Numbered from the stretch's first letter, positions 11,111-51,347 are shown. The stretch is DNA of 64,000 nucleotides from Nitrospirota bacterium (GCA_029261195.1 JAJDBU010000048.1:5814-69813), one strand, 5' to 3'. Made by a program: numbers and translations. Notes: generated by a model not told the origin, from the sequence alone.

Positions 11111-11504
11111 TTTTCTTCTCCTCCTCAATAAAGGCCTTTGCAAACTTTTTTATCCAGTCGAGTAGCAGAAGTGCTTCGGCTTGTGCCTGACGGTAGTGGT
11201 GCATATCTTTGGTGGTAATCCCTATCATGAGATTATCCAGTCCGGCATAGGGCTGTCCCGGTTTCTTCATCCAGTCGGAAAGCAATTCGTAAAGCGCATT
11301 ATAAGCAGGGTTCCCTTTTTCGCCCGATCCCTTGCTCAAATAATACGCCGCCGCTTGTCCCAACCCATTCATCCGAATCATGGCCGGGAAATTTTGTGCA
11401 TAGCTTTTATATTCTTTTTGATTAAGATCTTTACTGTCTTTTTCCTTTACTTCCTCTACTTTATCCAGTGCATATTTAGCGCGCTTCTGCTGCATCGTCT
11501 GCAT
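11082..11504 (-). CDS. cmr5: Type III-B small subunit Cmr5
   Basis: 140 aa. The FPAMIRMNGLGQAAAYYLSKG motif is typical of Cmr5, and the gene sits between cmr4 and cmr6. Confidence 0.75.
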   Translation of the reverse strand: MQTMQQKRAKYALDKVEEVKEKDSKDLNQKEYKSYAQNFPAMIRMNGLGQAAAYYLSKGSGEKGNPAYNALYELLSDWMKKPGQPYAGLDNLMIGITTKDMHHYRQAQAEALLLLDWIKKFAKAFIEEEKKNEPAKSAAL

Positions 11505-11506
11505 GG

Positions 11507-20489: not shown

Positions 20490-23231
20490 TTAGGGAGACA
20501 AAGCGATCATCTTTTCCTTTAGCACCGCTTCAAAGCCTTCGGCAGAAAGCGGTTTCGCTATGAGATACCCTTGTCCTCCGTCGCATCCCAGACCTTTCAG
20601 AAAGGACATCTCCTGATCTGTCTCTATGCCCATTGCCAAAACTTTCATATTGAGATGATGGCCCATACTCACAATCGCACTGACCAGAGAGATTTTTTTG
20701 GGATCAAGGGAAAAGTTTTGGATAAAGGGTTTGTCGATTTTCAGCTGGTCAATGGGATGCCTGGAGAGCTTGCTTAAAGGAATGTGCTCTCTCCCAAAGT
20801 CATGAATCGATAATTTAACCCCAAGATCCTTAAGTTTCTTATATCTTGCATTCCATTTGTCGTCTTTTTCAAGCAGAAAACCGCCTACAATCTCAATCGT
20901 TAAGTGCTGCGCTAAAAGGCCACTCTCCTCCAAGGCCTGCTTGAGGACGGCGTCGAAATCGCTATCGTTGAGCTGGCGATTTGATACGTTTACAGAAATA
21001 GCGCCGCTATACCGATAGTCATCACGCCAATGCTTGGCCTGCTTGCAGGCTTTTTTAAGCGCCCATTCCCCGATTTCGCAAATCAGATCCGATTTTTCCG
21101 CAGTCGGCATAAATTGATCCGGTAAGATGAGGCCGTGATCGGGATGCTCCCAGCGGATTAAGGCTTCCAGGCCGATTGTTTTTGATGAAACCAGATCAAT
21201 GATCGCTTGGTAGTAAATGACAAATTCCTGCTGCTCTATTCCTCTTCTGATGTCACTTTCCAGGGGAGAATACTTTTCTGTCCTGAGTTCCCGATTAAAG
21301 AAATAGAAGCGGTTTCGCCCGAGCGATTTTGCCTGATACATCGCCCTGTCCGCATTATTCAAAAGTACCGCAATCTCCTCTCCGTCGTCCGGAATGATGG
21401 TGATGCCGATACTGGCGCTAATAGATATATTACGGTCGTTTATAAGGAAGGGAGAAGACAACTTTTCGATAATCTTGTTCGTTACAACAACACTGTCTTT
21501 ACGGTCAGTAATATCTGAAAGGATGACAAGGAATTCGTCGCCGCTATAACGGGCAACCGTATCGGCCTCCCGAATACAGGTCAGCATACGCTTGCCTGCT
21601 TCATTCAGAATCCGGTCTCCGGCCATATGACCGAAGGTATCATTGACTTGCTTAAACTTATCGAGGTCTAGGAATAGGAGCGCTGATTTTTTTCGGTTTC
21701 GTTTGGTCAATTTGATGTTTTGTAAGAGGCGCTCTTTAAAAAGAGTGCGATTTGGCAAGCCGGTCAGTTCATCGTAGTGGGCACGGCGATAGAGCTTCGT
21801 CTCGTCCTCTTTACGCCCGGTGATGTCGATATAGAAAGCGACATACTGTATGACATTCCCCTGCTTGTCCTTAAGCGCCGTAATTGAGAGCCATTCCGGA
21901 AAAATTTCCCCATTTTTACGGCGGTTCCAAATTTCTCCAGCCCAATGACCGCTTGTTGTAATTTTATCCCACATGGCTTTATAAAAGCCTTTGTCGTGTC
22001 TTTTAGACTTTAGAATGCTTGGATTTTTTCCGATCACTTCTTCAACAGAATAACCGGTAATCCGCGAAAATGCCGGATTGACCGACAAGATGTTGCCATG
22101 AAGGTCTGTTGAAATAATGGCTTCGTTTGCGGCATTAATCAGCGTTGTGGCTAAGTACTCTTTTTTTTCAGCCTTTTTATGTGCTGCAATGCCTTGCATA
22201 AAAATATTAAAAAAATAAGATGGCCCTATTTTAGTCATCCAGAGCACCATCTCTACCGGAAACTCTTTTCCGCTTCGATGTTCGGCGGACAGGAATATGC
22301 GTTTGAACAAGGCATCGTCTCCCTCGGCCAGAAAATGATGAATGCTCATTTTGCGTATTTCTCGTAATCTCTGAGGGATAATGATTTCATTGAACAATCT
22401 TCCAATCACCTCTTTTTTAGACCAACCAAAGATAAGCTCCGCCTGATGGTCCCAAAAAATGATTGTTCCGCTTGCATCAATTTGAATAAAAGGGGCGCGG
22501 GATTTCCTGAGCCTGAGGTCTTTGGACAAGCGGGTTTTTCGGAGTAGGTCCTCTGCATGTTTTCGTTCTGCAATTTTAGCTCTCAGGATTTCCAGGGAGT
22601 GTTCCGCTTGATCGTCCATTGAGATAATGGTTCCGTGTGCATCAATCTGAACAAAGAGAGGACCTGAGGTTTTAAATCTTAAGTCTTTAGGTAACTTTTT
22701 TTTTCGGAGTACCTCCTCCGCATATTTTCGATCTACAATTTTAGGCCTCAGGGTTTCCATCACTGTATTAATTTCTGAACTTCTCTTTTTTACGATTTCT
22801 TTAAGGGCTTCGCGGTGACGCCTAATCTCGGTAATATCCAGACCTGCTGCAAAAATACCAACAGAGGCCCCCTGCTTACCTAAAATCGGAACAACATTCC
22901 ATGACAAGTGGGTCGCTCGAAAATCACTAGACATCACTCGCCCTTCAAAACCGATGCAGGGCTCTCCTGCCAGAATTTGCCTGATATCCTCTGCAGCCTT
23001 CTTCCATTTAGATTTCGGAAGAAAAAGTTCAAAATAGTCCTTTCCCAGAACCTCTTCCCGTCTCAGTCCATAAACCTGCTCTGCCTCTTTATTAAATTCA
23101 AGAATGAGGTGAGTGGGAGACAGATAGACCAAGACCCGATTATCGGTCTGAAGAAGCGAATGAAGTCGGGCCTCCTTTCTTTTCAAGGCTTCGACAAAGG
23201 CATCGCTGATTTTCCTGAGTTCTTTATTCAT
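20490..23231 (-). CDS. Multi-PAS GGDEF-EAL c-di-GMP signalling protein
   Basis: 913 aa. PAS segments, a GGDEF domain with the variant RYSGDEFLVIL motif, and an EAL domain (EALIRWEHPD, QGYLIAKPL). Confidence 0.9.
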   Translation of the reverse strand: MNKELRKISDAFVEALKRKEARLHSLLQTDNRVLVYLSPTHLILEFNKEAEQVYGLRREEVLGKDYFELFLPKSKWKKAAEDIRQILAGEPCIGFEGRVMSSDFRATHLSWNVVPILGKQGASVGIFAAGLDITEIRRHREALKEIVKKRSSEINTVMETLRPKIVDRKYAEEVLRKKKLPKDLRFKTSGPLFVQIDAHGTIISMDDQAEHSLEILRAKIAERKHAEDLLRKTRLSKDLRLRKSRAPFIQIDASGTIIFWDHQAELIFGWSKKEVIGRLFNEIIIPQRLREIRKMSIHHFLAEGDDALFKRIFLSAEHRSGKEFPVEMVLWMTKIGPSYFFNIFMQGIAAHKKAEKKEYLATTLINAANEAIISTDLHGNILSVNPAFSRITGYSVEEVIGKNPSILKSKRHDKGFYKAMWDKITTSGHWAGEIWNRRKNGEIFPEWLSITALKDKQGNVIQYVAFYIDITGRKEDETKLYRRAHYDELTGLPNRTLFKERLLQNIKLTKRNRKKSALLFLDLDKFKQVNDTFGHMAGDRILNEAGKRMLTCIREADTVARYSGDEFLVILSDITDRKDSVVVTNKIIEKLSSPFLINDRNISISASIGITIIPDDGEEIAVLLNNADRAMYQAKSLGRNRFYFFNRELRTEKYSPLESDIRRGIEQQEFVIYYQAIIDLVSSKTIGLEALIRWEHPDHGLILPDQFMPTAEKSDLICEIGEWALKKACKQAKHWRDDYRYSGAISVNVSNRQLNDSDFDAVLKQALEESGLLAQHLTIEIVGGFLLEKDDKWNARYKKLKDLGVKLSIHDFGREHIPLSKLSRHPIDQLKIDKPFIQNFSLDPKKISLVSAIVSMGHHLNMKVLAMGIETDQEMSFLKGLGCDGGQGYLIAKPLSAEGFEAVLKEKMIALSP

Positions 23232-24491: not shown

Positions 24492-24911
24492 TTAAGCACA
24501 CCAGTTTTCAATGCTTAGACCTCGCACACGTTCAAATTCTTTCACGTTATTGGTCACGAGGGTTTTATGGAGTGAGCGCACATGGGCCGCTATCCATAAA
24601 TCATTATTCCCGATAAGCAGGCCTTTTGATGCCAAGTCGGCCCTGATTTCTGCGTAATGTCGTGCGACCTCTTTTCCGATGGGGATCACCGATATCATCG
24701 CCACCAGTTCATCTAATATGTTTTTTGCCTTTTCACTGTTTTGACTTCGATAAGCGCCATAAAGCAGTTCGCCGTGGGTGACCAGGGACATCGCCACCGA
24801 GCCAAGGCGCAGGCTGGAAAACTTTTTCAGGACTTCGGGAGGGCTTTCCTTGGCAATGTAGATACAGATGTTGGTATCCAAAACATACTGGCAACTATTC
24901 ATATCACCCAC
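24492..24911 (-). CDS. vapC: PIN-domain toxin VapC
   Basis: YVLDTNICIY at the N-terminus, IGNNDLWIAAH and LVTNNVKEFERV. Paired with an upstream AbrB-type antitoxin. Confidence 0.8.
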   Translation of the reverse strand: MGDMNSCQYVLDTNICIYIAKESPPEVLKKFSSLRLGSVAMSLVTHGELLYGAYRSQNSEKAKNILDELVAMISVIPIGKEVARHYAEIRADLASKGLLIGNNDLWIAAHVRSLHKTLVTNNVKEFERVRGLSIENWCA

Positions 24912-26680: not shown

Positions 26681-28222
26681 ATGGATCGTTTCCTCTCGCC
26701 CGAACCTATAGTCCGCCTCGAAAAGGCCTTCCTCAATCCCTTTAAAAACTTTGTCGCGACGGCAAAGACCTGTTATTCGAGCAAGGGCATTGTCCGGGAT
26801 GAGGATGTGAAGGGCGGCTACAAACCGCTTGCTAAAAGTATCTATCAGGCCGGGCACCATACGACGCTTCAACATGCCCATTTCCAATTTTCGCTTCAGC
26901 ATGTCTCCCGCCAATTCATCTGGTCTTTTCTGCATAGTCATCCCTATTACAACTCCGAACAGGTCAGCCAGCGCTATGTCGCGATGAAACCGGAAGCCTT
27001 CGTCACCCCGCCTCTTTCGGAAAAAGCGCTCTCCATCTATAAGGTCGGCGTGCAGGCCCAGATGGCGGCCTATGAAAAGCTTAATGCCTTGTTGATGCCT
27101 CTTGTTGATGCGGAATACGCCCTACGCTTTCCACGAAAAAGACGGAATTTTGAGCGCGATGTGAAAAAAAAATCTCAGGAGATCGCCCGCTACGTCATTC
27201 CAATCGGGGCGACGGCCTATCTCTATCATACGATTTCCGGCATTACCCTGCTTCGTTATTACCGGCTTTGCCAACAGTTTGACAGCCCCTTGGAACAGCG
27301 GATCGTTGTTGAGAAGATGGTGGCTGCCCTCCTGGAGTTCGACCCTGAATATGAGACCATTCTGCAAGCCCCCCTGGAAATCGAATCAACACCCGAATAT
27401 GCTTTTTTTGCATCCCAGGCCAAAGAAACGACATCGAAGGAGCGTAATGATTTTCTCAGCGAGTTCGATTCAGATCTTGATGGACACAATTCAAAACTGG
27501 TTGACTACAAAATCAATCAGGAAAGTGTTTTGGCCGACGCAGTTCGAGAGGTCTTCGGACTGCCGCGAGCGGCGCTGGATAATCCTTCGGCCATTCGTCG
27601 AGTACTCGACCCGGCCCTAAACCCGCTTTTAGGGGAATCGCTCAATATAACGACCCTCTCAAAACTAAGCCGCACCCTCTTTCATCCTGCCTATACCTTC
27701 AAGAAAAAGCTCTCGCACACGGCAGACTCTCAAGATCAACGACACCGGATGACGCCCGGATCGCGTCCGGTTCTATCGGCCCATCTTAGTGATGAGCCGG
27801 ACTATGTGACACCGGAGTTGATTAAAACCGAGCCTGTTGCTGAGACTTATTATCAAGAAGTGATGACCCGTTCCTGGGAACGCTTTCAAGATCTGAAGCA
27901 ACTCGGTGTTCCTGTTGAATATGCCCTTTATCTGCTACCGAATGCCCTTTCGATTCGATTTACCGAGTCGGCCGATTTGCTGAATCTGCGTCATAAACAT
28001 GCCATGCGCCTGTGTTATAACGCACAGGAAGAGATATGGCGGGCATCTCTGGACGAAGCCAGTCAGATTACGACGGTCAATCCGCTGATTGGTCCCTACC
28101 TATTGCCACCTTGTACCTCTCGCGCAATGGCCAATATCCGCCCGGTCTGCCCTGAAGGAGAGCGTTACTGCGGAGTCAAGGTCTGGAAAATCGGCCTACC
28201 GGAATATACCCGTGTGATCTAG
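26681..28222 (+). CDS. Long-form ThyX (Thy1)-like protein
   Basis: 513 aa. GHHTTLQHAHFQF, an RHR motif (DSQDQRHRMTPGSR) and AMRLCYNAQEEIW resemble the FAD-dependent thymidylate synthase fold. However, the canonical RHRx7S spacing is not met. Confidence 0.5.
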   Translation: MDRFLSPEPIVRLEKAFLNPFKNFVATAKTCYSSKGIVRDEDVKGGYKPLAKSIYQAGHHTTLQHAHFQFSLQHVSRQFIWSFLHSHPYYNSEQVSQRYVAMKPEAFVTPPLSEKALSIYKVGVQAQMAAYEKLNALLMPLVDAEYALRFPRKRRNFERDVKKKSQEIARYVIPIGATAYLYHTISGITLLRYYRLCQQFDSPLEQRIVVEKMVAALLEFDPEYETILQAPLEIESTPEYAFFASQAKETTSKERNDFLSEFDSDLDGHNSKLVDYKINQESVLADAVREVFGLPRAALDNPSAIRRVLDPALNPLLGESLNITTLSKLSRTLFHPAYTFKKKLSHTADSQDQRHRMTPGSRPVLSAHLSDEPDYVTPELIKTEPVAETYYQEVMTRSWERFQDLKQLGVPVEYALYLLPNALSIRFTESADLLNLRHKHAMRLCYNAQEEIWRASLDEASQITTVNPLIGPYLLPPCTSRAMANIRPVCPEGERYCGVKVWKIGLPEYTRVI

Positions 28223-28384
28223 TCACTCATCTATCTGCGACACAGGCCGACTCGGGCAGAGACGCCCCATATTTTCCCGGCATAAAGCAATTGCAACTCA
28301 TTGTATAATCAAAATTTTGGGTCTATACTGAAGAGTTAGCTAAAAAATTTGAAGTCTGTTCAGCGAATCGATAAAGGAGGGATC

Positions 28385-29767
28385 ATGCTGAAGCGAATCA
28401 TACTACCACTGCTTACCATTGTTTTTCTGTTACAGGGGATGTCCACCGGGGTCAAAGCCGAAGCCGGCCCGGAAGCAGGTATTAATCTCATTGAACAAAT
28501 GCAATCGGCATTTATCCATATTGCTGAAAGTGTTGAATCTGCTGTTGTCAATATCTCACCCTCAACAACGGGTCCACCCCGACCGAGTCCACGACAGCGA
28601 CGCGGCGGGCCGAAAGATGCCCCGGCGGGTTCAGGTTCGGGTGTGATTATTGATGTTGAAGGGTATATCGTTACGAACAATCATGTGGTCGGTGATGCCT
28701 CTGTTGTCGAGGTACGACTTTCTGATAAGTCAAAGTTTAAAGGAACGGTCATCGGGAAAGACCCCGACACCGACCTGGCCCTGGTCAAAATTGAGCCGGA
28801 AGGGAAAGAACTCCACTCGGTGAAACTGGGCGATTCCTCAAAAGTAAAGGTTGGGCAATGGGCCATTGCTGTTGGAAACCCCTTCGGCCTTGACCGTACT
28901 GTCACTGTCGGCGTGATCAGTGCGCTGGGACGGGAAAACGTCAATCTTTCACGCTATGAAGATTTTATTCAGACCGATGCGGCGATTAACCCCGGCAATT
29001 CCGGAGGCCCGCTCTTTAACATCAGAGGAGAGGTCATCGGGATCAATACGGCCATCATCAATTTCGCGCAAGGCATCGGCTTCGCGATTCCCTCGAATAT
29101 GGTCCAGGCCATTTCAGGACAATTGAGGGAGAGGGGTCGCGTGAGTCGTGGCTGGCTCGGTGTCGGCATTCAGCCCTTGACCCTGGAGTTAGCTCAGAAA
29201 TTCGGAGTAGACGAAGGCTCCGGTGTCCTGATCAACGAAGTTTTTGAAGGCGACCCTGCCGATCTCGGCGGCATTCGACCGGGTGATATCATCCTGTCGG
29301 TTAATGACGAAAAGGTCGACACGCCGAACACCCTGGCACGTTTGGTCGCCGGATACTTTCCCGGCGAAACGATTCGGATCGATGTGCTGCGCGACGGCAA
29401 AAATGTCCTGATCAACGTTGACCTTGTCGAGCGAAAAGATGAAGTCGTTGCTTCAGCGCCGAAAATCAGAAAAAAATTCCTGGGCTTGAGCGTCGTCGAT
29501 GTGAGCAAAGAAATCGCCGAGAAATACAAGCTGAAGGAAGGCGACGAGGGAGTGGTGATTACCCAGGTGGATGAAGAATCCGTCTCTGCCTCTGAAGGGC
29601 TTAGGGAAGGCGATCTCATCAAGGAGGTCAATCGTCAGAAGATCAAGAATACGGAAGATTTCGGTAGTATCATGCGCGCCACAAAGAACACTGAAACAAT
29701 CCTGATGCGCGTTTCACGTGAAGGCCGCGCCTTCTTCATCGTATTGAAGCCTACGGCACAAGAATAG
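28385..29767 (+). CDS. htrA: HtrA/DegP-family periplasmic serine protease with two PDZ domains (track ORF starts at 28349)
   Basis: Catalytic triad context TNNHVV, DLALVKI and GNSGGPLFN. Signal peptide MLKRIILPLLTIVFLL. AAAGGAGG lies upstream of ATG 28385. Confidence 0.9.
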   Translation: MLKRIILPLLTIVFLLQGMSTGVKAEAGPEAGINLIEQMQSAFIHIAESVESAVVNISPSTTGPPRPSPRQRRGGPKDAPAGSGSGVIIDVEGYIVTNNHVVGDASVVEVRLSDKSKFKGTVIGKDPDTDLALVKIEPEGKELHSVKLGDSSKVKVGQWAIAVGNPFGLDRTVTVGVISALGRENVNLSRYEDFIQTDAAINPGNSGGPLFNIRGEVIGINTAIINFAQGIGFAIPSNMVQAISGQLRERGRVSRGWLGVGIQPLTLELAQKFGVDEGSGVLINEVFEGDPADLGGIRPGDIILSVNDEKVDTPNTLARLVAGYFPGETIRIDVLRDGKNVLINVDLVERKDEVVASAPKIRKKFLGLSVVDVSKEIAEKYKLKEGDEGVVITQVDEESVSASEGLREGDLIKEVNRQKIKNTEDFGSIMRATKNTETILMRVSREGRAFFIVLKPTAQE

Positions 29768-29790
29768 AGTCTTGTCACCCTGAACTAAAA

Positions 29791-29826
29791 AAGGCCCTTC
29801 CAGCTTACTGGAAGGGCCTTTTTTTT
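29791..29826 (+). terminator. Rho-independent terminator after htrA
   Basis: Perfect 13-bp stem AAGGCCCTTCCAG/CTGGAAGGGCCTT with a 4-nt loop, followed by a T8 run. Confidence 0.85.
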
Positions 29827-29865
29827 AAGAAAAGCAGGCAAGGTCACCCCCCCCAAACGAGGGGG

Positions 29866-29894: not shown

Positions 29895-30186
29895 CCATTA
29901 CAGAATTGAGTCCGGGATGTAAACGGCATGGCCTCAAGCAGTCACCTGCTCCTGATCATTGCTTGTTTTATGTAAGTCAGGCGTCTTCCGTTTCCATTAC
30001 CGCTCATTTCTAAAAACCTCACATCATTGCTTAAAAGTCAGCTCTTCACTTAAATCGGTTTCCACCTTTTTAAGTGGTTTGAGCTTTCCATAAGGCAGCA
30101 TTAATTTTTCATAAAGATGGGGCTATTTCTCCCTTCGTTTTATATTGAGGGGAGGCTTAGTCATATCGAAAGTTATGTCTATAGAA

Positions 30187-30258
30187 ATAAGGGGTAAACA
30201 GGGCTAAGAAGAAATCGGGTTTATTGTGGGGGTGGGACTTGCCCCCAGCATTGCTCTG
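30187..30258 (+). repeat. Decayed duplicate of the csgF RBS, start and signal-peptide region
   Basis: About 80 percent identity by eye to 32148-32220. ATGATG is replaced by CTAAG, and there is a 1-nt deletion in the T run. Confidence 0.7.
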
Positions 30259-30562
30259 CGGTAAGTCTACTCCCCGCAGGGCTTATGACGAAAAAGGTGA
30301 GGCTGCTGTCCGCATGATTTGGAGATCCGGGGGACAGCAGCCTCTGCAAGGACACCAATGGACTTATTTCACTGGGACATTGCACTCTCAGGCTATCAAT
30401 TTATTTCAATCCCGTCAATTATAAGGAGGCAGGTTTGCGTCTCCAATACTCTTTATCCTGCATTCGAGATTTCTGCATTCGGGGCCTTGAGGTACTGCAA
30501 CCGGGTCGGAGGAAAAATCGTTTGACTTCTTTTGGATTGAGTGAGTTAAGGAGGATACGGAA

Positions 30563-31447
30563 GTGAACCCGATTAGATTTTGTTTGCCGCTGTTTGCTGT
30601 GTTGTTTTTCATGATGGCTTTGGTTTTACCCCTTGAGGCCTACAGCAGAGAAGTAAAAAATATGAGCGTAGAAGTCGGCGAAGGGGAAAGCGTCTGGGAC
30701 GCCACCCGGTCCCTTGCCCGCCGATTGTCGCTGAAAGACAGCACGTTTTTTAAGGCCTGGGATGAAAGCTATACAATTATCCGTGGTCACAAGGTGCCGA
30801 TCTACGAAATTGATTGGGTTGATGCCGGGACCAAGGTTTTTTGGAATGATGCGCAGCGTCTGTTTGAAGTAGATCTCATTGGTACCGGCACGATACGCGA
30901 TTTTCAGGCCTTCATTGCACAGAACAAAGATTCCTGGGGAAAAAATGGAGAGGAAGTCACTTTGGCGGCCATCTCTCCAGTGAAGCAAGAGAAAGGCGGA
31001 TCGGCGCCGCTGGAAAATGCAAAATCACCCATGCTTGCGACTGCCCCTAAACAAAGGAAAGACACAATTGCTTCAGAAAAAAAGGAAAATATTTTGCCTG
31101 CGCCACCTGCGCCCGGCCCGGCACATAAGAAAAATACCAGTCGCTTTTTGTTCGACCCCGATGTGGAGATTGGCGGTTTGATTCTCGACCAAACGCAGAC
31201 GTCCTTGGGGTATACCTTCTTTCAACATTTCACAAGCTATTGGCAGGGGGACGAGAACGATCCATTTGTCATCACTGTCATAGAGCAGTCGAGCGCCCGG
31301 GCCGGCGTTCGGGTTTTTGTTAAGGTCAATGAAGTCGTTGTTCATCACAGCTTTCTTCGCGCCAGGGGTCAAAACTTCGATGAGATTGCGAAACAGGGGG
31401 TCAACGACACCCAAAAATACATCAATGAAAGATGGAAGGGCACATGA
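30563..31447 (+). CDS. csgE: CsgE-like curli assembly/transport component with ~190-aa N-terminal extension
   Basis: The C-terminal ~100 aa (GGLILDQTQTSLGYTFFQHFTSYWQG...FVITVIEQSSARAGVRVFVKVNEVVVHHSFL) aligns by eye with E. coli CsgE. GTG start with AAGGAGG 8 nt upstream, and a signal peptide. Confidence 0.7.
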   Translation: MNPIRFCLPLFAVLFFMMALVLPLEAYSREVKNMSVEVGEGESVWDATRSLARRLSLKDSTFFKAWDESYTIIRGHKVPIYEIDWVDAGTKVFWNDAQRLFEVDLIGTGTIRDFQAFIAQNKDSWGKNGEEVTLAAISPVKQEKGGSAPLENAKSPMLATAPKQRKDTIASEKKENILPAPPAPGPAHKKNTSRFLFDPDVEIGGLILDQTQTSLGYTFFQHFTSYWQGDENDPFVITVIEQSSARAGVRVFVKVNEVVVHHSFLRARGQNFDEIAKQGVNDTQKYINERWKGT

Positions 31448-32124
31448 AGCATAAGGCGGCGTGTTTCGTAAATGAAGCCAATCAAATAACAAAAATCACG
31501 GCTGGATTATTTATCCTGACGGGCTTCGCCTTCTATTTACTGAACAGTCCCTCTGTCTCGGCAAAGGACGATTCACCTGTTGTGACGACCTCATCTCTTA
31601 TGGAAGATATTGATCGTAAGGAAAAGGATCTGGGTCGGGAGGAATTACTCAGTACCTCAGATTCAAACCGGCGGGATATTGATCCAAAAGAAAAGGATTT
31701 GGGCCGGGGAGAGCGTTTAAATACATCCGCAGCGCCCGCACAGGATATCGATCCAAACGAGAAAGATATGGGGCAGGGAGAACCTTTTATCCAGTCAAAT
31801 ACTTTTTTAGTCAATGATCGGGGTACGGACGACAAGACAGAGGAGGCTCAAGTGGGTGACGGTGAAATTCTGCTGGGAAAGGATTTTACGGATGCGATCA
31901 AGGGGAAAAAATTCTCTGAACAGTCTCTACTGAAGACGATCACATTGCAAAAAAATCCGCCCCTCAATGAGGATGAGATTCATTTCAAGAACAATCCGGG
32001 GCTCTTTGTTGAAGGGGAATTTCTGGAAGAGATCAATGCGGCAAAAAGCCCCGAACTCCCGGAAGCTGTCCCATCCGTGCAAGCACAGCGACCCGAGTTT
32101 GATCTTGTGCTACCTGAAAATTAG
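31444..32124 (+). CDS. Membrane-anchored/secreted acidic repeat protein (orfX) inside the curli operon
   Basis: The ATG overlaps the csgE stop (ATGA). Hydrophobic N-terminus, then three tandem DIDxKEKDLGxGE units. No family recognised. Confidence 0.55.
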   Translation: MKHKAACFVNEANQITKITAGLFILTGFAFYLLNSPSVSAKDDSPVVTTSSLMEDIDRKEKDLGREELLSTSDSNRRDIDPKEKDLGRGERLNTSAAPAQDIDPNEKDMGQGEPFIQSNTFLVNDRGTDDKTEEAQVGDGEILLGKDFTDAIKGKKFSEQSLLKTITLQKNPPLNEDEIHFKNNPGLFVEGEFLEEINAAKSPELPEAVPSVQAQRPEFDLVLPEN

Positions 32125-32163
32125 CTTCATCTGAAGCCATCATAAAGATAAGGAGTAAAAGGG

Positions 32164-32601
32164 ATGATGAAGAAATCGGGTTTTATTGTGGGGGCGGGAC
32201 TTGTCCTCGGCATTGCCCTGGGAGCAGGGCAAGCCACCGCATCCGAATTGGTCTTCGGGTTTGATAATCCCTCATTCGGGGGAAACCCGTTCATGGGACG
32301 GCACCTTCTGGATACCGCCAATTCTATCAACACGCATAAGGCGCCGACAAAACCTCCCGGCCTCGAAACCCCGGAACTGAGTGAGGCGGAACTGTTTTCG
32401 GAGAACCTGAGGCGGCAGGTGCTCAACCGCCTGGCAAGAACTATCGTCAATTCGGCCTTTGGTGAAACGGGTCTACAGCCAGGGGTGCACACCATCGGCG
32501 ACAATAGCATTGAGGTCATTGATGATGGACTGAATGTCACAGTCATTATTACCGACCTCGGGACCGGTGCTGCCACCACCGTTACGGTCCCTCGTTTTTA
32601 G
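32164..32601 (+). CDS. csgF: CsgF-like curli assembly component
   Basis: Signal peptide followed by SELVFGFDNPSFGGNPFMG, matching the conserved CsgF N-terminal motif (xLVYxPxNPxFGGNPxNG). AAGGAG RBS. Confidence 0.8.
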   Translation: MMKKSGFIVGAGLVLGIALGAGQATASELVFGFDNPSFGGNPFMGRHLLDTANSINTHKAPTKPPGLETPELSEAELFSENLRRQVLNRLARTIVNSAFGETGLQPGVHTIGDNSIEVIDDGLNVTVIITDLGTGAATTVTVPRF

Positions 32602-32636
32602 GACCCCGTCTACGATTAGATTAAGGAAATGATTGG

Positions 32637-33584
32637 ATGAACCCTATGAATTTTACGCTCAAAATGGTGGCAGGATTGATCTTGTTACTGAGCCTATCGG
32701 CTTGCGGTATTGGAAGAGGCATGATCAGAACCATGCCTGCAACGTCCGGAAAGGCATACCAAACAGAAACCCATCAGGCCCTGGTCGCTCTGCCGCCGCC
32801 CAAAAAGAAAATTGTCATCGCCGTCTACAAGTTTCGGGATCAAACCGGGCAATACAAACCGGTGGCAGCCGGATCGACCTTTTCAACCGCCGTCACCCAG
32901 GGGGCGACGACCATGTTGATGAAGGCCTTGGAGGATGCCGGGAAGGGCCGCTGGTTTACTACTCTTGAGCGAGAGAGCCTGCCGAACCTCTTAAATGAAC
33001 GGAAGATTATCCGTTCCACAAGAAGACAATACAAGGACCAGGGCGGCAATAAAAAGTTTAAAGCCCTCCCCTCCCTCCTTTATGCCCCGGTGATTTTAGA
33101 GGGCGGCATTATTGCCTATGAGACCAACCTGGTCACAGGCGGCTTTGGTGCCCGCTATCTGGGCGTCGGTGCCAACGCCCAGTACCGACGGGATGCCGTG
33201 ACCATTTTCCTGCGGCTCATCTCGGTGAAAAACGGCGAAGTACTCAAAACCGTTACCACGAGTAAAACCATTCTGTCGAGAGAATTGGACCTGGGCCTGT
33301 TTAAATTTGTGAGTTTTAAAAAATTGCTGGAGGTCGAAACCGGCTTCAGTGTAAATGAACCGACCCAGATGGCAGTCTTAGAAGCCATCGAAAAGGCCGT
33401 TCATAGCCTGATTATCGAGGGAGCGGCAAATGAAATCTGGAACTTTGAGTCTCCCCTTGCAGGCCGGAAATTGATTGAGCAATATTATGTGGAAAGCCCG
33501 GTTCCGGTAAAAGTAACGGAAGACAAGGGATTCGGGATAAGAATACTGGACAAAAAAAAGAAAACGAATAACCAACAGGGATAG
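32637..33584 (+). CDS. csgG: CsgG curli secretion channel lipoprotein
   Basis: Lipobox LSLSAC, plus IAVYKFRDQTGQYKP...STAVTQGATTMLMKALEDAG...LERESLPNLLNERKIIRS. Confidence 0.9.
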   Translation: MNPMNFTLKMVAGLILLLSLSACGIGRGMIRTMPATSGKAYQTETHQALVALPPPKKKIVIAVYKFRDQTGQYKPVAAGSTFSTAVTQGATTMLMKALEDAGKGRWFTTLERESLPNLLNERKIIRSTRRQYKDQGGNKKFKALPSLLYAPVILEGGIIAYETNLVTGGFGARYLGVGANAQYRRDAVTIFLRLISVKNGEVLKTVTTSKTILSRELDLGLFKFVSFKKLLEVETGFSVNEPTQMAVLEAIEKAVHSLIIEGAANEIWNFESPLAGRKLIEQYYVESPVPVKVTEDKGFGIRILDKKKKTNNQQG

Positions 33585-33639
33585 AAGCTTTCTGCCCCTG
33601 AGGGAAAATGAAACAAGGCCAAAAAATAGGGGAGAAAAA

Positions 33640-34086
33640 ATGCTTAAGTTGCTGATTGTGATAGGACTAATTGGATCGCTCTATCGCCCGGGTTTTACAG
33701 AAAACCGAATCGATATCGAACAGGTGGGAGACATCAACACTGCGACCACCTCTCAGGTGGGCGATGACAATCTGATCGCCGGCGCCACAAGCGGCGGCGC
33801 CATCAATCCGGCGATTGCGGCCTTGCAGGACAGTTCAAGTTCGGGAGGTGCCAATACCCTCATCGTCAGGCAGACCGGGGATGGCAATGAACTGGGTGTG
33901 TACCAAAAAGGAAACGAAACCTTGCTTGATGTCACACAGAGTGGCGGGAGCGAACTGGGAATCCATGTAGATGTCGGGGGCGCAAATAAAATTACCGTCA
34001 CCCAGACAGGCGGTGCAACTGCAATCATCAAGCATGGCCCGGATGCGGGAGGCAGCTTGACCTGCCCCGGCGATCCCCCGTGTTGA
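33640..34086 (+). CDS. Curlin-repeat protein 1 (CsgA/B-like)
   Basis: Repeated xQxGxxNxxxxxQ units (IEQVGDINTATTSQVGDDN, VRQTGDGNELGVYQKGNETLLDVTQSGG, VTQTGGA). Ends in CPGDPPC. Confidence 0.7.
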   Translation: MLKLLIVIGLIGSLYRPGFTENRIDIEQVGDINTATTSQVGDDNLIAGATSGGAINPAIAALQDSSSSGGANTLIVRQTGDGNELGVYQKGNETLLDVTQSGGSELGIHVDVGGANKITVTQTGGATAIIKHGPDAGGSLTCPGDPPC

Positions 34087-34358
34087 GGCAAAAGGGAACG
34101 AGTTCGAATTGAAGGGACATCCAGAGACAAGACTTAAAGAAGAGAATGCGGGTATTGCGTGTCGATACTTGCAGAACAGTTCGATAGCGGGAGCATAGTG
34201 CGCCCCTATCGAAAACGGTCCCGATTGGCGGGATCGAAACGAAGCTGGCTGTTGAGCTCGTGAGCATCGCAGGAACAGGGCGTTCCAAGCGAAGCACTCA
34301 ACAGCCAGCCATAAGCTCACTAATTGGTGAGCTTATCAATATTAAATGGAGAAAATCA

Positions 34359-35021
34359 ATGAAAAGCATGTTAAAAGTACTTGGAATGTTTGTTGCTACC
34401 TTTTTCATGGCAAATGTTGTGTTGGCTGGCAACACTGCTGATATCACGCAGATCGGTGACGACAACGATTCTGTCACTTCCCAGACGGGAGATGGCAATG
34501 ATATTGATGTGGCACAAGATTCGTCGCTAGCAAGCTCTAGTGGTGTAAATGACAGCAAGGTTATACAGAACGGTGACAGTAATATTGTGAATGTTTCGCA
34601 AGATTCAGATGGAACAGGCGGGACTGTCACTAACACGGTCGACATTAACCAAGATGGTGACAGTAACAAAGTAAGGGGCGCTAGTGCTACTGTTGGCATT
34701 GCGTCAATAATTACTGGTGCCGCACCTTCAGTTGCCACCCAAAAATCGAAAGTAGGCGACAATAAGTTGGTTGTCGACCAAGATAGCGGCACTAATGATA
34801 TCGGTCTGTATCAAGACAGTTCTGCCGCTGGTGGGGCAAACACAGCCGACTTCGTCCAAGATGGTGGCGATACGGTAGCGACTTACCAGGCGACGACCGG
34901 CAGTGGTGCATCAATCAAAAATGATGTTGACGTTGACCAGACTGGAGCTTCCGCCAACGACGCCACCAATTTCCAGAGCGGTGCGGGAAGCAATAGCTTC
35001 ACACTCGTGCAGCACCCCTAA
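34359..35021 (+). CDS. Curlin-repeat protein 2 (track ORF starts at 34260)
   Basis: Signal peptide MKSMLKVLGMFVATFFMANVVLAG, then ITQIGDDNDSVTSQTGDGNDIDVAQ-type repeats. GGAG lies upstream of ATG 34359. Confidence 0.75.
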   Translation: MKSMLKVLGMFVATFFMANVVLAGNTADITQIGDDNDSVTSQTGDGNDIDVAQDSSLASSSGVNDSKVIQNGDSNIVNVSQDSDGTGGTVTNTVDINQDGDSNKVRGASATVGIASIITGAAPSVATQKSKVGDNKLVVDQDSGTNDIGLYQDSSAAGGANTADFVQDGGDTVATYQATTGSGASIKNDVDVDQTGASANDATNFQSGAGSNSFTLVQHP

Positions 35022-35080
35022 ACCTACACCTCAGGTGCTGTAAACTGTTCCTGAACCGGCCTCGAACCGGGGCATAAAAA

Positions 35081-35128
35081 GGCGTGGAGCAGGCGGCGTA
35101 AGCCGTTCCGCTCCACGCCTTTTCTTTT
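35081..35128 (+). terminator. Rho-independent terminator after curlin 2
   Basis: 10-bp stem GGCGTGGAGC/GCTCCACGCC with a 19-nt loop, followed by TTTTCTTTT. Confidence 0.7.
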
Positions 35129-35149
35129 AAGCACTCTGGAGAAGGAACG

Positions 35150-35590
35150 ATGAAAAAGAGCACAATGTCCTTATTATGCTTGATGGCAAGCCCTTTTCTC
35201 CTCCATGTCCCATCGGCCCAGGCCCTCACCGGTCCCGCCCCCAATGTCACACAAACGGCACCACGGGGTAAGACCAACACCAATACCCCTGCGCCACAAT
35301 CCGGCAAGGGCAACCGTAATGCGGTGAATCAGGATTCAACAAACGGAAATAACACAAACCTCACTTCTCAGCAAGGCGATAACAACATCAATCAAGTCGA
35401 TCAAAAGGCCGGGGGAAACAACAAGGCCTCTGTCACCCAGTCCGGAGAGGGCAACACGCTCGACGTTCAGCAGACAGGTGGGAGCAACAAGTTGAATGTT
35501 AAGCAAAGCGGAAAGTCCACAATCCGCATCATCCAGAAATCGAACGGCACAACAGGCAGCAATTCCGCCACTGTTGTTCAAAGGCCCTAG
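35150..35590 (+). CDS. Curlin-repeat protein 3 (N/Q-rich, most CsgA-like)
   Basis: Signal peptide, then 11-residue-period QxGxxNxxxVx units: SQQGDNNINQVDQKAGGNNKASVTQSGEGNTLDVQQTGGSNKLNVKQSG. Confidence 0.8.
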   Translation: MKKSTMSLLCLMASPFLLHVPSAQALTGPAPNVTQTAPRGKTNTNTPAPQSGKGNRNAVNQDSTNGNNTNLTSQQGDNNINQVDQKAGGNNKASVTQSGEGNTLDVQQTGGSNKLNVKQSGKSTIRIIQKSNGTTGSNSATVVQRP

Positions 35591-35638
35591 TTTTTTTAGT
35601 TTTCGATTATAAACCAGCAAATGAAGGAGGGGGATGTC

Positions 35639-36361
35639 ATGAAAATTTTGTCCAGCATTTTAGCAATTGGGATAGCGATACTTTTGGTCATTAGCGCCGC
35701 AATGGCGGGAAACGTAGCGGATATCGAACAAGTGGCTCCGGGCAACACTGCGACAAGCATCCAGACCGGAGACCTCAATCATATCGAATCGATCCAGGAG
35801 ACCGGCGGCACCAATTTTCTGGATGCCGAACAGGTGGGCAACAACCATGTACTAGACTTGGACCAGGATTCACCCACAGGATCGGCCGGAAAAAATACCG
35901 CCACCATCAATCAGGAAGTAAGCGGCGCCGCTGCCAACGCAGATAGTGCGCGCATTAAGCAAACAACAAAATCCACCTTAAGCGGCATTACGAATAGCGC
36001 AACGGTCACACAAAAGGGAGGTGGAAACAAACTCAGGGCCGCCCTGTCCAGCGGAAATATCAGCGCTGCGGTTACTTCAACTGCTAAGCAGGAGGCCACC
36101 GGCGCAGCCGCTACCGCCATTAATAAATTGCTGGTTTTGCAGGAAGGCGGCAACAATGATATCGGTCTTTTCCAAAAGGGCTCCGACCTGAACGATGCCG
36201 ACATCGTTCAGAAATCAGGGAGCAATGACTTGGGGGCCTATCAGCTCACCACCACGGGAAAGAACGAACTCGAAGTGGATCAACTGACAGGAGGCAACAG
36301 CGCCAAATTGATTCAAAAGACCGGTGGCACAGGGGACAACTGGGCCAAAATTATCCAATAA
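35639..36361 (+). CDS. Curlin-repeat protein 4 (track ORF starts at 35621)
   Basis: Signal peptide MKILSSILAIGIAILLVISAAMAG, then IEQVAPGNTATSIQTGDLNHIESIQETGGTNFLDAEQVGNNH repeats. A GGAGG RBS favours ATG 35639. Confidence 0.75.
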   Translation: MKILSSILAIGIAILLVISAAMAGNVADIEQVAPGNTATSIQTGDLNHIESIQETGGTNFLDAEQVGNNHVLDLDQDSPTGSAGKNTATINQEVSGAAANADSARIKQTTKSTLSGITNSATVTQKGGGNKLRAALSSGNISAAVTSTAKQEATGAAATAINKLLVLQEGGNNDIGLFQKGSDLNDADIVQKSGSNDLGAYQLTTTGKNELEVDQLTGGNSAKLIQKTGGTGDNWAKIIQ

Positions 36362-36724
36362 AGAAGGCCTACAGTCCCCAACACACAGGTAATTTATATC
36401 AGGACCTGTTGTTCCTCGTGCCTGAGCGATCAATAAAAAAGGTGTGGAGCAACGACATCCGTGCGCCTGCAAACCACAATATTACAATAGAATCGTGGTA
36501 AACCCGACCACCCGACTATGAATTATTCATCTCTGAATTTGTCTTCAGCAGGGTGTTGAACCACCGATCAGTTTTTAAACTCACTATGCACAGTAATATC
36601 TTGCCTGTCTTTTCCTCACCCAAACGATTTTTATCGCTTAAAGGTGAAAAACAAGGTTCGGTATGATAATATCGCGCCGCTTTATTAAAGGCGCGTTCAA
36701 AAATTATTAAAAAAAAGGGGCAGG

Positions 36725-37189
36725 ATGAAACGAATTATATTCTTGAGTCTGTTAAGTTTTTTGTTCGGATTGACCAACATCACCGATGCCGCCACGATCG
36801 ACCCCATGAACCTGGAACGTACAATCAAGAGGGCGACGGCTCTCGTCGCGCCTTCCGAAAATGCAAATGTTTCCTACGATGCTGCGAAGGAACATGTTTC
36901 CCTTTCATTTAGTACAAGCCCGGATTATCAAGAAGCGACTGTCGATGCCTATCGTCGCTGGCGCATTAATCAGTGGTCTGTACTGCAGGAGTTTATGCTA
37001 TCAAGAATTCCCGTCAAAACCATCTCGGTAGAAACCAATCGCATTGAGGATGGAACGCTTGTGCGCTATACACATTCCAAAAGACACTCCGATAAATATG
37101 GCGATATTCACGGCAATAAATTATGGCTGAGAACCGGGCGGGTCATGGAAAAATCTGCGGGTTCGGATACCTGGGAAAAAGTAAAGTGA
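36725..37189 (+). CDS. Hypothetical secreted protein
   Basis: 154 aa with a signal peptide. No family recognised. Confidence 0.45.
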   Translation: MKRIIFLSLLSFLFGLTNITDAATIDPMNLERTIKRATALVAPSENANVSYDAAKEHVSLSFSTSPDYQEATVDAYRRWRINQWSVLQEFMLSRIPVKTISVETNRIEDGTLVRYTHSKRHSDKYGDIHGNKLWLRTGRVMEKSAGSDTWEKVK

Positions 37190-37322: not shown

Positions 37323-37688
37323 GTGAAACAGATTTCGCTTATATTGGTATTGGTCTCAATATTAGTGCCTGGGTCCTACCCTTCAAATGCAAATGCCGAC
37401 ATACGTCATCTCCAGATTTCACCCGTTGGCCGTAACTACGCAAGCATGTCAATGGGTGAACGCATCTTCTATGTAACGGGTGTGGTGCATGGCATGACAC
37501 TCGCCAGGCCGATGGAAGAGGGCGATGATATGGTGCCCTGGCTACATGGGTGCATCGCCAAGAAGCAGCCATATCAACTGGATGTGATTGTTGCGGGATA
37601 TATTTCAAATCACCCCGAACTCTACGACGCAAGTCTTGATGTCGTCACTTTCCTGGCATTTAAAAAATCCTGCCGAAAAAAAAGATAA
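37323..37688 (+). CDS. Hypothetical secreted protein
   Basis: 121 aa. GTG start with a GGAGGA RBS, and a signal peptide. No family recognised. Confidence 0.4.
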   Translation: MKQISLILVLVSILVPGSYPSNANADIRHLQISPVGRNYASMSMGERIFYVTGVVHGMTLARPMEEGDDMVPWLHGCIAKKQPYQLDVIVAGYISNHPELYDASLDVVTFLAFKKSCRKKR

Positions 37689-38355: not shown

Positions 38356-38715
38356 TTATGCCATTTTCCCGACCAGGCTCTCCAGTGGAATATTCAGATG
38401 AGCGTGTAGCTTCCGAATCATATTGAGCGATAAGTTTCTTTGGTGATTAAGAATTTCAGAAACGCGACCTCGTTTTCCGATATAGGGTTCTAATTCTTTT
38501 CGAGACACATTCATTTGTTCCATTCGAAATTTAATGGCTTCCACCGGGTCGGGTGAATCAATCGCATGGTGTTTTCTTTCATAATCGTCCACTAAAATTA
38601 AAAGAATATCCAGCTTGTTTCCTGCTGTCGTATTCTCTTCCGCACCCCACAACTGATCAATCTCAGCGAGAGCGCTTTCATAATCAAGTTCTGTTTTGAT
38701 GGGGTAAATATTCAT
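38356..38715 (-). CDS. higA: HigA-family HTH (XRE) antitoxin
   Basis: 119 aa. The C-terminal HTH RKELEPYIGKRGRVSEILNHQRNLSLNMIRKL, located immediately downstream of higB. Confidence 0.7.
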   Translation of the reverse strand: MNIYPIKTELDYESALAEIDQLWGAEENTTAGNKLDILLILVDDYERKHHAIDSPDPVEAIKFRMEQMNVSRKELEPYIGKRGRVSEILNHQRNLSLNMIRKLHAHLNIPLESLVGKMA

Positions 38716-39017
38716 TAAACTTCCTCCGCATTAACCTTGTTATATTGTTTATGCGTTCCAATAAATTTGATAAAAAGGGTTTGTCGAATATAATCAAGGG
38801 CAACAATAAGTCTATATTTGTTGCCCCCGATGTTAAAAACAACAGGACTATTTTTTAGAATACTGGCCGAACGAAATTGAGATTTAATGTCTTGAGGGCT
38901 TTGCCAGCGGGCCGTCAGTGCTTCCGCATGCCAGGCCTCAAGTGGCCCTTTTGAATCCGCATATTGTTGCGATGACACCCAGAACCGCCATAAAGTGCGT
39001 TTTGCTATAATTCTCAC
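38715..39017 (-). CDS. higB: HigB-family mRNA interferase toxin (GTG start; track ORF extends to 39104)
   Basis: VRIIAKRTLWRFW...WHAEALTARWQSPQDIKSQFRSASILKN..VVFNIGGNKYRLIV...IKFIGTHKQY, typical of the HigB_toxin family. 1-nt overlap with higA. Confidence 0.7.
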   Translation of the reverse strand: MRIIAKRTLWRFWVSSQQYADSKGPLEAWHAEALTARWQSPQDIKSQFRSASILKNSPVVFNIGGNKYRLIVALDYIRQTLFIKFIGTHKQYNKVNAEEV

Positions 39018-39107
39018 GGTTATAACACGGTCCCGAATTGGGAGCAACGATGAAGAGGCTAAGTCATATATTCTCGTTGGAGAAAACAAGACGGTCTCCA
39101 TCATTTC

Positions 39108-50063: not shown

Positions 50064-51347
50064 TTACCCTACCGGCTTAAAAACCACGCAATTTCGACCT
50101 GATTCTTTGGCTTCATAGACGGCCTTGTCCGCCGCGTTGAAGAGGGTATCGAAGGTACAGGGCACATCTAAGGGGAGTTCGGAAACACCGAAACTGGCCG
50201 TTATTGGAATTTCTCTGGGTTTGAGCGCTTCAATCTTAAGACGAATCCGGTTTGCAAACTTCACCCCGTCCTCCCCCTTGCAGTGGGGCAGGATCAGGAC
50301 GAATTCCTCTCCACCGAAGCGGGCGGCGATGTTTTCTTTTCTGCCACCTTCCCTAATGACGGCTGCAACTTCAGAGAGAACGGCATCTCCCGCATCGTGG
50401 CCGTGGGTGTCATTGATGGCTTTAAAGTGATCCAGATCGATGAGAAGCAGACTCAGTGGAACCTGATGGCGCTTTGCTTCCAATAATCGCTTCGGGGCCT
50501 GATCAACCAGAAAATGTCTGTTGTAAAGTTTTGTCAACTGATCGGTCATCGCAAGCATCTGGAGCTGTTTTTGCTGGAACTCCACCTGGTCGAGCAGTTG
50601 TTTGTTGGTGATCAAATTTTTCACACGCGCGACCAATTCCTCCGTCACCGTCGGTTTTGGGATGAAGTCGTTTGCACCGCTTCTGAGCAATTCGACGCGT
50701 CGAGCCGCATCATCAAGACCGGAAACAGCCAGAATGGGAATCTGTGCCTTTCGCCCTTCGCTTCGCCGAACCTCCCGGAGCAGTGACAGGCCGCTCATGT
50801 GTCCCGCCAGGAGAATATCGGTCATGATCAGATCATAGTCGTTCTCTTTGAATTTAATCAGCGCCTCTTCCCCACTGACCACATGATCGACGCTCAGTCC
50901 CATCAAGGTGAGCTGATATTTGGTTAACTCGGCGACGGCAAGACCATCCTCCACATAGAGCACATGTCCCCGTAATTTCTGGTCGCTTTCCACCTGCTCG
51001 ACAAAGGTGCTCAGGTAGTTTCCGATACCCTCCAGATCGGATTTTCGGAAGATCTCTGTCACACCGGCAAGCATCGATTGTTCAACGATGCCCGGTTCTT
51101 CATTGGAAGTGCTCATGATGATGGGAAGTGTGTTCCCTATTTTCAAGCGTAAAGCCTTGCAGAAGTCGATGCCACTCATGTCATCAAGATGAAGGGAGAT
51201 ACAAGCAAGATCGAAGGTATCATGCGCAAGTTGCTCAAGCCCTTTTTCACCGGTCGAAAAAAAGACTGTTTCAAAGGGGTGGGCGCTGAACAGGGCAGCT
51301 AGCATTTTGCTGTAGACGCGTGAGGGTTCTACGACTAAGGCTTTCAT
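50064..51347 (-). CDS. PleD-like response regulator diguanylate cyclase (REC-REC-GGDEF)
   Basis: 427 aa. Two receiver domains (the second has DLIMTDILL) and an active-looking GGEEF motif (RFGGEEFVLILP). Confidence 0.85.
   Translation of the reverse strand: MKALVVEPSRVYSKMLAALFSAHPFETVFFSTGEKGLEQLAHDTFDLACISLHLDDMSGIDFCKALRLKIGNTLPIIMSTSNEEPGIVEQSMLAGVTEIFRKSDLEGIGNYLSTFVEQVESDQKLRGHVLYVEDGLAVAELTKYQLTLMGLSVDHVVSGEEALIKFKENDYDLIMTDILLAGHMSGLSLLREVRRSEGRKAQIPILAVSGLDDAARRVELLRSGANDFIPKPTVTEELVARVKNLITNKQLLDQVEFQQKQLQMLAMTDQLTKLYNRHFLVDQAPKRLLEAKRHQVPLSLLLIDLDHFKAINDTHGHDAGDAVLSEVAAVIREGGRKENIAARFGGEEFVLILPHCKGEDGVKFANRIRLKIEALKPREIPITASFGVSELPLDVPCTFDTLFNAADKAVYEAKESGRNCVVFKPVG

Follow-up and report, generated by a model that had tools for sequence, protein, structure and literature searches.

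A probable curli (type VIII secretion) locus with a long-form CsgE and four dissimilar curlins on one strand in a non-enterobacterial bacterium

Curli systems have been described in several arrangements besides that of Escherichia coli. The genes csgC and csgD were lost outside a few gammaproteobacterial orders and are absent from the Delta- and Betaproteobacteria and the Bacteroidetes, co-linear single operons exist, the number of dissimilar csgA/B paralogues reaches six in some genera, and many systems have neither CsgC nor CsgH, with no known substitute (PMC3521004). The curlins have been divided into centrosymmetric, non-centrosymmetric and degenerate classes, the degenerate ones bearing arc insertions and still being modelled as a curli solenoid; a half-repeat symmetry between motifs a and b has been described, and genomes with more than two curlin copies become exponentially rarer up to 14 copies, the highest number being 30 (PMC10192328). 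Here, a 64,000-nucleotide (nt) stretch assigned to a Nitrospirota bacterium (GCA_029261195.1, JAJDBU010000048.1:5814-69813), referred to as the window, was analyzed around positions 30563-36361, where an initial annotation made from the DNA sequence had described a co-linear curli-type amyloid secretion locus. With a probability of roughly 0.85, this region was read as an intact curli (type VIII secretion) locus of an uncultured, non-enterobacterial Gram-negative bacterium. Its co-linearity, the absence of csgC and csgD, the presence of several dissimilar curlins and their 11-residue period are published variation (PMC3521004, PMC10192328). All coordinates are those of the whole window of 64 kilobases (kb). 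The eight genes of the locus are listed below, with protein lengths in amino acids (aa).

30563..31447, + strand: long-form csgE, 294 aa (Pfam CsgE E 1.2e-16, residues 203-289 only)
31444..32124, + strand: orfX, 226 aa from the ATG at 31444, its start overlapping the csgE stop by 4 nt (ATGA)
32164..32601, + strand: csgF, 145 aa (Pfam CsgF E 3.1e-31)
32637..33584, + strand: csgG, 315 aa, outer-membrane lipoprotein secretion channel (Pfam CsgG E 2.5e-61)
33640..34086, + strand: curlin 1, 148 aa (Curlin_rpt 47.4 bits)
34359..35021, + strand: curlin 2, 220 aa from the ATG at 34359, the longest reading frame having 253 aa (Curlin_rpt 31.8 bits)
35150..35590, + strand: curlin 3, 146 aa (Curlin_rpt 23.1 bits)
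35639..36361, + strand: curlin 4, 240 aa from the ATG at 35639, the longest reading frame running from 35621 (Curlin_rpt 36.5 bits)

The listing of open reading frames (ORFs) placed all eight genes consecutively on the + strand at 30563-36361, as the initial annotation had proposed. Every ORF was intact and the ribosome-binding sites (RBSs) were present, among them GAAGGAGGGGG in front of the curlin 4 start at 35639. The intergenic gaps were short, with -4, 39, 35 and 55 nt along csgE-orfX-csgF-csgG-curlin 1, and 272 nt between curlin 1 and curlin 2. Seven of the eight products, all except OrfX, scored above the curated Pfam cut-offs for CsgE, CsgF, CsgG or Curlin_rpt (gathering score of the last, 20.7 bits), so that the family labels given earlier were supported, and the best NCBIfam families for these seven products were the CsgA/B/E/F/G equivalogs.

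The secretion proteins were compared with the E. coli K-12 reference proteins (NC_000913.3). CsgG scored 207 bits against a Pfam cut-off of 20.8, shared 42% identity with E. coli CsgG over 259 residues and carried the lipobox LSAC; its channel-loop segment KPVAAGSTFSTAV, aligned with E. coli KPYPASNFSTAV, retained the Phe that is the conserved constriction residue of this loop. CsgF was 31% identical to its E. coli counterpart and kept the N-terminal FxFxNPxFGGNP motif (FGFDNPSFGGNP aligned with E. coli FQFRNPNFGGNP), of which NPxFGGNP is presumably the segment that inserts into the CsgG channel. The CsgE domain was 30% identical to E. coli CsgE and matched the solved CsgE structure 2na4 both by sequence (E 1.4e-9) and by fold (Foldseek E 8.5e-6, template modelling score 0.69 on the target).

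The layout of the enterobacterial type, with divergent csgBAC/csgDEFG, a CsgD regulator and a CsgC chaperone, was not found, every gene lying on the + strand. No match to E. coli CsgC or CsgD was obtained by tblastn in the whole 64-kb window (best E > 2), and no CsgC/CsgD/CsgH-type family appeared among the Pfam results for the neighbouring ORFs, in agreement with the claim that both genes were unrecognizable here. The host, previously called probably non-enterobacterial, is clearly so on protein comparison, because CsgG is just 42% identical to that of E. coli and the nearest genomic relatives do not exceed 58%.

When one genome per species was scanned with CsgG, 25 related loci (L002-L026) were obtained. 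The closest CsgG proteins (58% identity) belonged to a Nitrosomonas metagenome-assembled genome (MAG) and a Thermodesulfobacteriota MAG, followed by Methylococcaceae (MAGs), Bacteroidota, Halomonadaceae, Endozoicomonas, Shewanella and others. In all 25 loci csgF adjoined csgG, and csgE adjoined csgF wherever it was detected, the profile having missed it in a few. The curlin genes lay on the same strand as csgEFG, either upstream or downstream; the order of the window, csgEFG and then the curlins, was also that of L002, L003, L015, L020 and L021, and three to four curlin genes were present in L006, L008 and L025. CsgD was detected in five loci, all gammaproteobacterial (L020-L022, L025 and L026), and CsgC in none of the 25.

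The four curlins had been described as differing in length between about 146 and 240 aa, and lengths of 148, 220, 146 and 240 aa were indeed obtained. All of them kept the Q-x10-Q spacing of a Gln ladder, and a parse anchored on Gln counted about 9 strand motifs in curlin 1, 14 in curlin 2, 10 in curlin 3 and 16 in curlin 4, those of curlin 1 corresponding to 4.5 repeats with one long arc insertion. Curlins 2 and 4 were full-length paralogues (30% identity, E 1e-30) with a common central insertion, of about 25 residues in curlin 4. The net charge of the mature proteins was about -10, -20, +7 and -8, respectively, curlin 2 being very acidic with 27 Asp. Three of the four began directly with repeats after the signal peptide. 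No DNA tandem repeats were found in the curlin genes at Tandem Repeats Finder (TRF) thresholds and, hence, the curlin repeats are conserved at the protein level alone.

A tight 11-residue period had been attributed to curlin 3 in particular. The period was present in this protein, but it was not specific to it: self-similarity at lag 11 was significant in each of the four curlins (z 3.3-5.4) as well as in the E. coli proteins CsgA (z 3.9) and CsgB (z 9.4), and in curlin 3 lag 22 was at least as strong as lag 11, like in E. coli CsgB. The 11-residue period of the four curlins is the half-repeat symmetry of motifs a and b (PMC10192328). Curlin 1 ended in LTCPGDPPC, which contains the CPGDPPC terminus noted before, where the alignment of the four placed the final xxVQ strand of the other three.

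Among the four, curlin 3 stood out as the best match to CsgB, with blastp values of E 2.5e-12 against E. coli CsgB and E 1.3e-9 against CsgA. It consisted of about five regular 22-residue repeats, matched the solved Pontibacter korlensis CsgA structure 8c50 (E 3.6e-13) and ended in TVVQRP, a terminus reminiscent of AIVVQRQ, a segment close to the C-terminal end of E. coli CsgB. Since it is basic and CsgB-like, with five regular repeats and this C-terminal end, curlin 3 is the candidate, and the most likely, surface nucleator. The acidic curlins 1, 2 and 4 are likely the fibre-building subunits and could occur in mixed or alternative fibres. Distinct nucleator and major-subunit roles, which the initial annotation had suggested, may plausibly exist.

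Two intrinsic terminators were located in and next to the locus.

35077..35131, + strand: intrinsic terminator after curlin 2, a 14-bp perfect stem (35077-35090/35110-35123) followed by TTTTCTTTT
29787..29831, + strand: intrinsic terminator of the htrA/degP-like gene, a 17-bp perfect inverted repeat (29787-29803/29808-29824) followed by a T-run

The first of them, already described as strong, folded with a free energy of -39.7 kcal/mol (z -5.9), a value reached by 0 of 200 shuffled sequences, and split the row of curlin genes; it was missed by a simple terminator scan on account of its long loop. The second formed the left border of the locus, where a 730-nt non-coding region starts. The gene that it ends (28349-29767) encodes an HtrA/DegP-type periplasmic protease with Trypsin_2 and PDZ domains and precedes the curli locus. 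From the intergenic gaps and the terminator, a first transcription unit is likely to comprise csgE-orfX-csgF-csgG-curlin 1, perhaps through curlin 2, and to end at 35131, and a second is likely to comprise curlin 3 and curlin 4; curlin 1 begins 55 nt past csgG with no terminator between them. Past curlin 4, at 36433-36470, a decayed left arm (AAAAAGGYGTGGAGCA...) of the curlin 2 terminator (cf. 35072-35125) was observed, its right arm and T-run missing. The paralogy of curlins 2 and 4, together with this decayed copy after curlin 4, suggests that an old curlin-plus-terminator unit was duplicated.

By homology with E. coli, all eight products would be exported by Sec signal peptides, and the lipidated CsgG would form the outer-membrane channel. 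The NPxFGGNP N-terminus of CsgF would plug this channel from the outside, with the remainder of CsgF on the cell surface, while the C-terminal CsgE domain would cap its periplasmic side and hand over the unfolded curlins. The four curlins would then leave the cell unfolded and fold extracellularly into stacked beta-solenoid amyloid fibres, with nucleation outside the cell most likely by curlin 3 and fibre growth from curlins 1, 2 and 4.

Several atypical parts of the locus had been overlooked in the initial annotation, namely an N-terminal domain of CsgE (N-domain), the link between OrfX and the long CsgE, an upstream hairpin and a relic of the csgF start. The csgE gene started with GTG, preceded by an AAGGAGG RBS, and its product had 294 aa, compared with 129 aa in E. 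coli. It comprised a signal peptide (residues 1-28), an N-domain (~29-135; coding span 30647-30970), a Pro/Lys/Ala-rich linker (~136-200) and the CsgE domain (203-289). The earlier csgE-like label therefore held for residues 203-289, but not for the remaining ~200 residues, which are not CsgE. In an AF2 model the N-domain, an unannotated region of ~105 aa, reached a per-residue confidence (pLDDT) of 70-89, whereas the linker, with a value of about 30, appeared disordered. No Pfam family, no sequence relative in the PDB and no significant PDB fold match by Foldseek were found for the N-domain. A LysM domain was considered because of a GESVWDAT motif and a sub-threshold match to NCBIfam YneA (E 0.002), and was rejected, as six family members gave no Pfam match up to E 10, no PDB sequence matched and no LysM was present among the Foldseek matches in the PDB.

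In the 25 related loci, the longest ORF of csgE, where detected, had 121-179 aa, and the N-domain occurred in none. Among 5.8 billion clustered proteins, a word-indexed search returned a single relative of the long CsgE, P0002, with 58% identity, in which the N-domain was conserved to the same degree as the CsgE domain; both domains are evidently under purifying selection, judging from this comparison. Exhaustive HMMER searching of 1.84 billion representatives with residues 1-200 gave six proteins at E <= 1e-3. One of these, P0009, aligned solely to the low-complexity linker (residues 136-190), so the N-domain itself has five detectable relatives. In this tiny family, positions with W, T, W, S, F and G are conserved. 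Two of the relatives, P0002 and P0006, had a C-terminal CsgE domain and, together with the protein of the window, made three CsgE fusions in three independent assemblies. P0007 lacked a CsgE domain and came from the same Joint Genome Institute (JGI) sample as P0002, and P0008 and P0010 carried the N-domain in non-curli gene contexts; the N-domain proteins without CsgE included proteins of 295-668 aa from groundwater metagenomes. No further long-CsgE loci were found in two metagenome-contig scans, one with a protein query and the other with a two-sequence alignment query, and a profile of the N-domain alignment gave zero matches in the 5.8e9-protein set, a result that is uninformative since the known members were missed too.

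OrfX was an acidic protein with a signal peptide and three DIDxxEKDLGxGE repeats, encoded by three copies of a DNA repeat with a 69-nt period. It belonged to no Pfam or NCBIfam family and matched nothing but itself among the 5.8e9 clustered proteins (ORFan). Its only known homologue, of 222 aa (32% identity, pairwise E 3e-19), was found on L027, the 2.5-kb contig that encodes P0002, the sole close relative of the long CsgE, and none was found in the 25 other related loci. On L027 the orfX homologue lay upstream of the csgE-like gene, whereas in the window orfX lay downstream of csgE, to which it would be translationally coupled.

Furthermore, two elements were located within the non-coding region upstream of csgE.

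30253..30383, no strand assigned: conserved non-coding element with a 13-bp hairpin (30299-30311/30332-30344)
30181..30258, + strand: degenerate copy of the csgF start (csgF-start relic), comprising an RBS and the first ~19 codons, the start codon being lost

The non-coding element was 83% identical over 132 nt to positions 1375-1503 of L027, with a core of about 95%. This conservation was far above that of the flanking coding sequence, the adjacent proteins being 58% identical. One compensatory change, from G-C to A-U, separated the hairpin stems of the window and L027, and five conserved GGA motifs were counted in about 100 nt. The element may be an RNA leader, a small RNA (sRNA) or an operator, and the GGA motifs prompt the idea that it may be under CsrA/Rsm-type control. 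Rfam gave no gathering-threshold match in the window, and a permissive scan gave chance-level matches only, so that a known riboswitch or sRNA had no support from Rfam. A small ORF was discarded as well, as the loops of the window and L027 differ by a 1-nt indel that puts the two copies in different frames. An sRNA on the minus strand, to which a promoter-like site (30445-30418) and the hairpin, with a T-run after it on that strand, had pointed, was not adopted because neither the T-run nor the -10 box was conserved in L027.

The csgF-start relic and positions 32142-32220 shared 84% identity in an 80-nt blastn alignment (E 5e-16), and no such copy was found in L027. The segment flanked by the relic and the csgF start comprises exactly the long csgE, orfX and the hairpin element. 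From its sequence, this repeat looks like the scar of a recombinational insertion, or of a duplication followed by loss, which placed the cassette before csgF.

The N-domain and OrfX, both specific to this lineage, raised a different reading, in which the system is a modified type VIII system whose working is changed by the long CsgE and OrfX. The N-domain might serve to capture curlins without an N22-type targeting segment, or to anchor the CsgE cap to another envelope component, and OrfX might be a periplasmic anti-aggregation factor that replaces CsgC or CsgH. Such roles are consistent with an N-domain that is conserved as the CsgE domain is between 58%-identical homologues and is modelled with a pLDDT of 70-89, with a fusion that recurs in independent assemblies (the window, P0002 and P0006), with an OrfX homologue beside the second long CsgE and translational coupling of orfX to csgE, with the absence of any CsgC/CsgH-like protein and with three of four curlins beginning with repeats right after the signal peptide. 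Nevertheless, the N-domain has no Pfam family, PDB sequence match or significant PDB fold match and also occurs in proteins outside a curli context, and OrfX appears mostly disordered and is fast-evolving (32% identity). Moreover, the absence of CsgC and CsgH is shared with many curli systems that have no known substitute (PMC3521004), and two or three examples give weak co-occurrence statistics. A changed machine was considered rather unlikely. The more specific proposal, that the bracketed cassette of structured leader, CsgE fusion and OrfX is an undescribed accessory and regulatory type VIII module, which adapts the machine to dissimilar curlins or substitutes for the CsgC/CsgH safeguard, with the hairpin giving post-transcriptional control in place of CsgD, is speculative and on the whole improbable.

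Several observations weigh against the reading of the region as an intact curli locus. The NCBIfam scores were far under the equivalog cut-offs (for CsgG, 221 versus 505 bits), which makes the locus proteins distant family members and not orthologue-level matches. Every curlin matched both the CsgA and the CsgB model weakly and far below these cut-offs, and sequence does not settle which of them would play the CsgA and which the CsgB role. The signal peptide of curlin 1 was short and atypical, and its C-terminal Cys pair, if oxidised, would be difficult to pass through CsgG. The regions in front of curlin 2 and curlin 3 showed no sigma-70-like promoter; this absence is uninformative, given that the E. 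coli curli promoters are sigma-S dependent. An AF2 model of curlin 4, built on an alignment of the four window curlins alone, had 16 beta-strands where they were expected, but its mean pLDDT was 48 (low confidence), and a Foldseek search with it gave only non-significant beta-helix matches.

Some of these observations would also suit repeat proteins that are secreted through a CsgG-type channel as beta-solenoid surface proteins or adhesins, with no amyloid formed. Curlins 1, 2 and 4 have degenerate repeats, long insertions and modest Curlin_rpt scores, and the lack of a match for curlin 2 among the sequences of solved structures and the low-confidence model of curlin 4 point in the same direction. 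However, all four curlins pass the Pfam gathering threshold and keep Q-x10-Q, degenerate curlins bearing insertions are a recognised class (PMC10192328), and a complete csgEFG set adjoins the genes, so that non-amyloid adhesins were regarded as very unlikely.

The csgF-start relic upstream, the decayed copy of the curlin 2 terminator after curlin 4 and the different position of orfX in L027 indicate that the locus has been rearranged, but that it is a decaying remnant whose expression was lost is hardly credible in view of eight intact ORFs with signal peptides and RBSs, the functional motifs kept in CsgF and CsgG, and the evident purifying selection on the N-domain and the CsgE domain. An intact curli locus was thus retained as the preferred reading.

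As one more curli locus, the region adds little, since non-enterobacterial one-strand systems with several curlins have been catalogued since 2012. Nonetheless, one machine would serve four very different subunits, one basic and regular, one strongly acidic and two with large insertions, and the locus is a compact test bed for substrate recognition by CsgE/CsgG and for the formation of mixed fibres. The main specialist interest lies in the rare CsgE fusion with its co-travelling secreted OrfX and the conserved upstream hairpin; if functional, the N-domain, OrfX and the hairpin would be the first described add-ons to CsgE.

Additional genes were recorded around the locus. Directly upstream of htrA, a gene on the + strand (26681-28222) encodes a 513-aa protein whose only family match was Thy1 (flavin-dependent thymidylate synthase ThyX), its length being roughly twice that usual for ThyX. 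Directly downstream of curlin 4, two small ORFs on the + strand (36725-37189 and 37323-37688) had signal-peptide-like N-termini; they were considered as CsgC/CsgH analogues and rejected, with no family match and no counterpart in the 25 related loci. Two genes on the - strand encode cyclic-di-GMP signalling proteins, namely a PAS-GGDEF-EAL protein of 913 aa (20490-23231), which lies 7 kb upstream of the curli genes, and a response-regulator-GGDEF protein (50064-51347); both may conceivably regulate a biofilm matrix locus without CsgD. Two toxin-antitoxin pairs flanked the curli region, a HigB toxin with a helix-turn-helix (HTH) antitoxin (38356-39104, - strand) and a PIN-domain toxin (24492-24911, - strand) with a MazE-type antitoxin encoded by the adjoining 75-aa gene. 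Farther upstream, the minus strand carried a type III-B (Cmr) CRISPR-Cas cluster at ~9989-16801, with RAMP proteins, Cmr3 (E 4e-61) and Cas10/Cmr2 (palm2 E 9e-32, Cmr2_N E 8e-21).

Compared with the known systems, the locus resembled those of E. coli and Salmonella in its CsgG, CsgF and CsgE-domain homologues and in its secreted Gln/Asn/Gly-rich subunits made of curlin repeats of ~22 residues, one of which, curlin 3, is a small, basic and CsgB-like subunit. The upstream non-coding span was also of similar size, with 730 nt in the window and 755 nt in the csgD-csgB gap of E. coli MG1655. Unlike in E. coli, the genes of the window lie on a single strand with csgEFG first, there is no CsgD or CsgC, and four curlins are present instead of two; moreover, CsgE carries the N-domain and linker, orfX stands between csgE and csgF, and a terminator lies inside the row of curlins. 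The single strand, the lack of csgC and csgD and the multiple curlins are shared with the operons of Dueholm 2012 and with L002-L026. Nevertheless, the 25 fetched loci differ from the window in having, where csgE was detected, a short gene that adjoins csgF, with neither N-domain nor orfX in any of them. Regarding the subunits, no description of a Cys-Pro-rich tail replacing the last strand, as in curlin 1, was found in the study of curlin classes, where the cysteines were engineered (PMC10192328). Curlin 3 is like the regular, centrosymmetric class of that study, with near-equivalent motifs a and b and a match to the class representative 8c50, whereas curlins 1, 2 and 4, with their arc insertions, can be placed in the degenerate class (PMC10192328).

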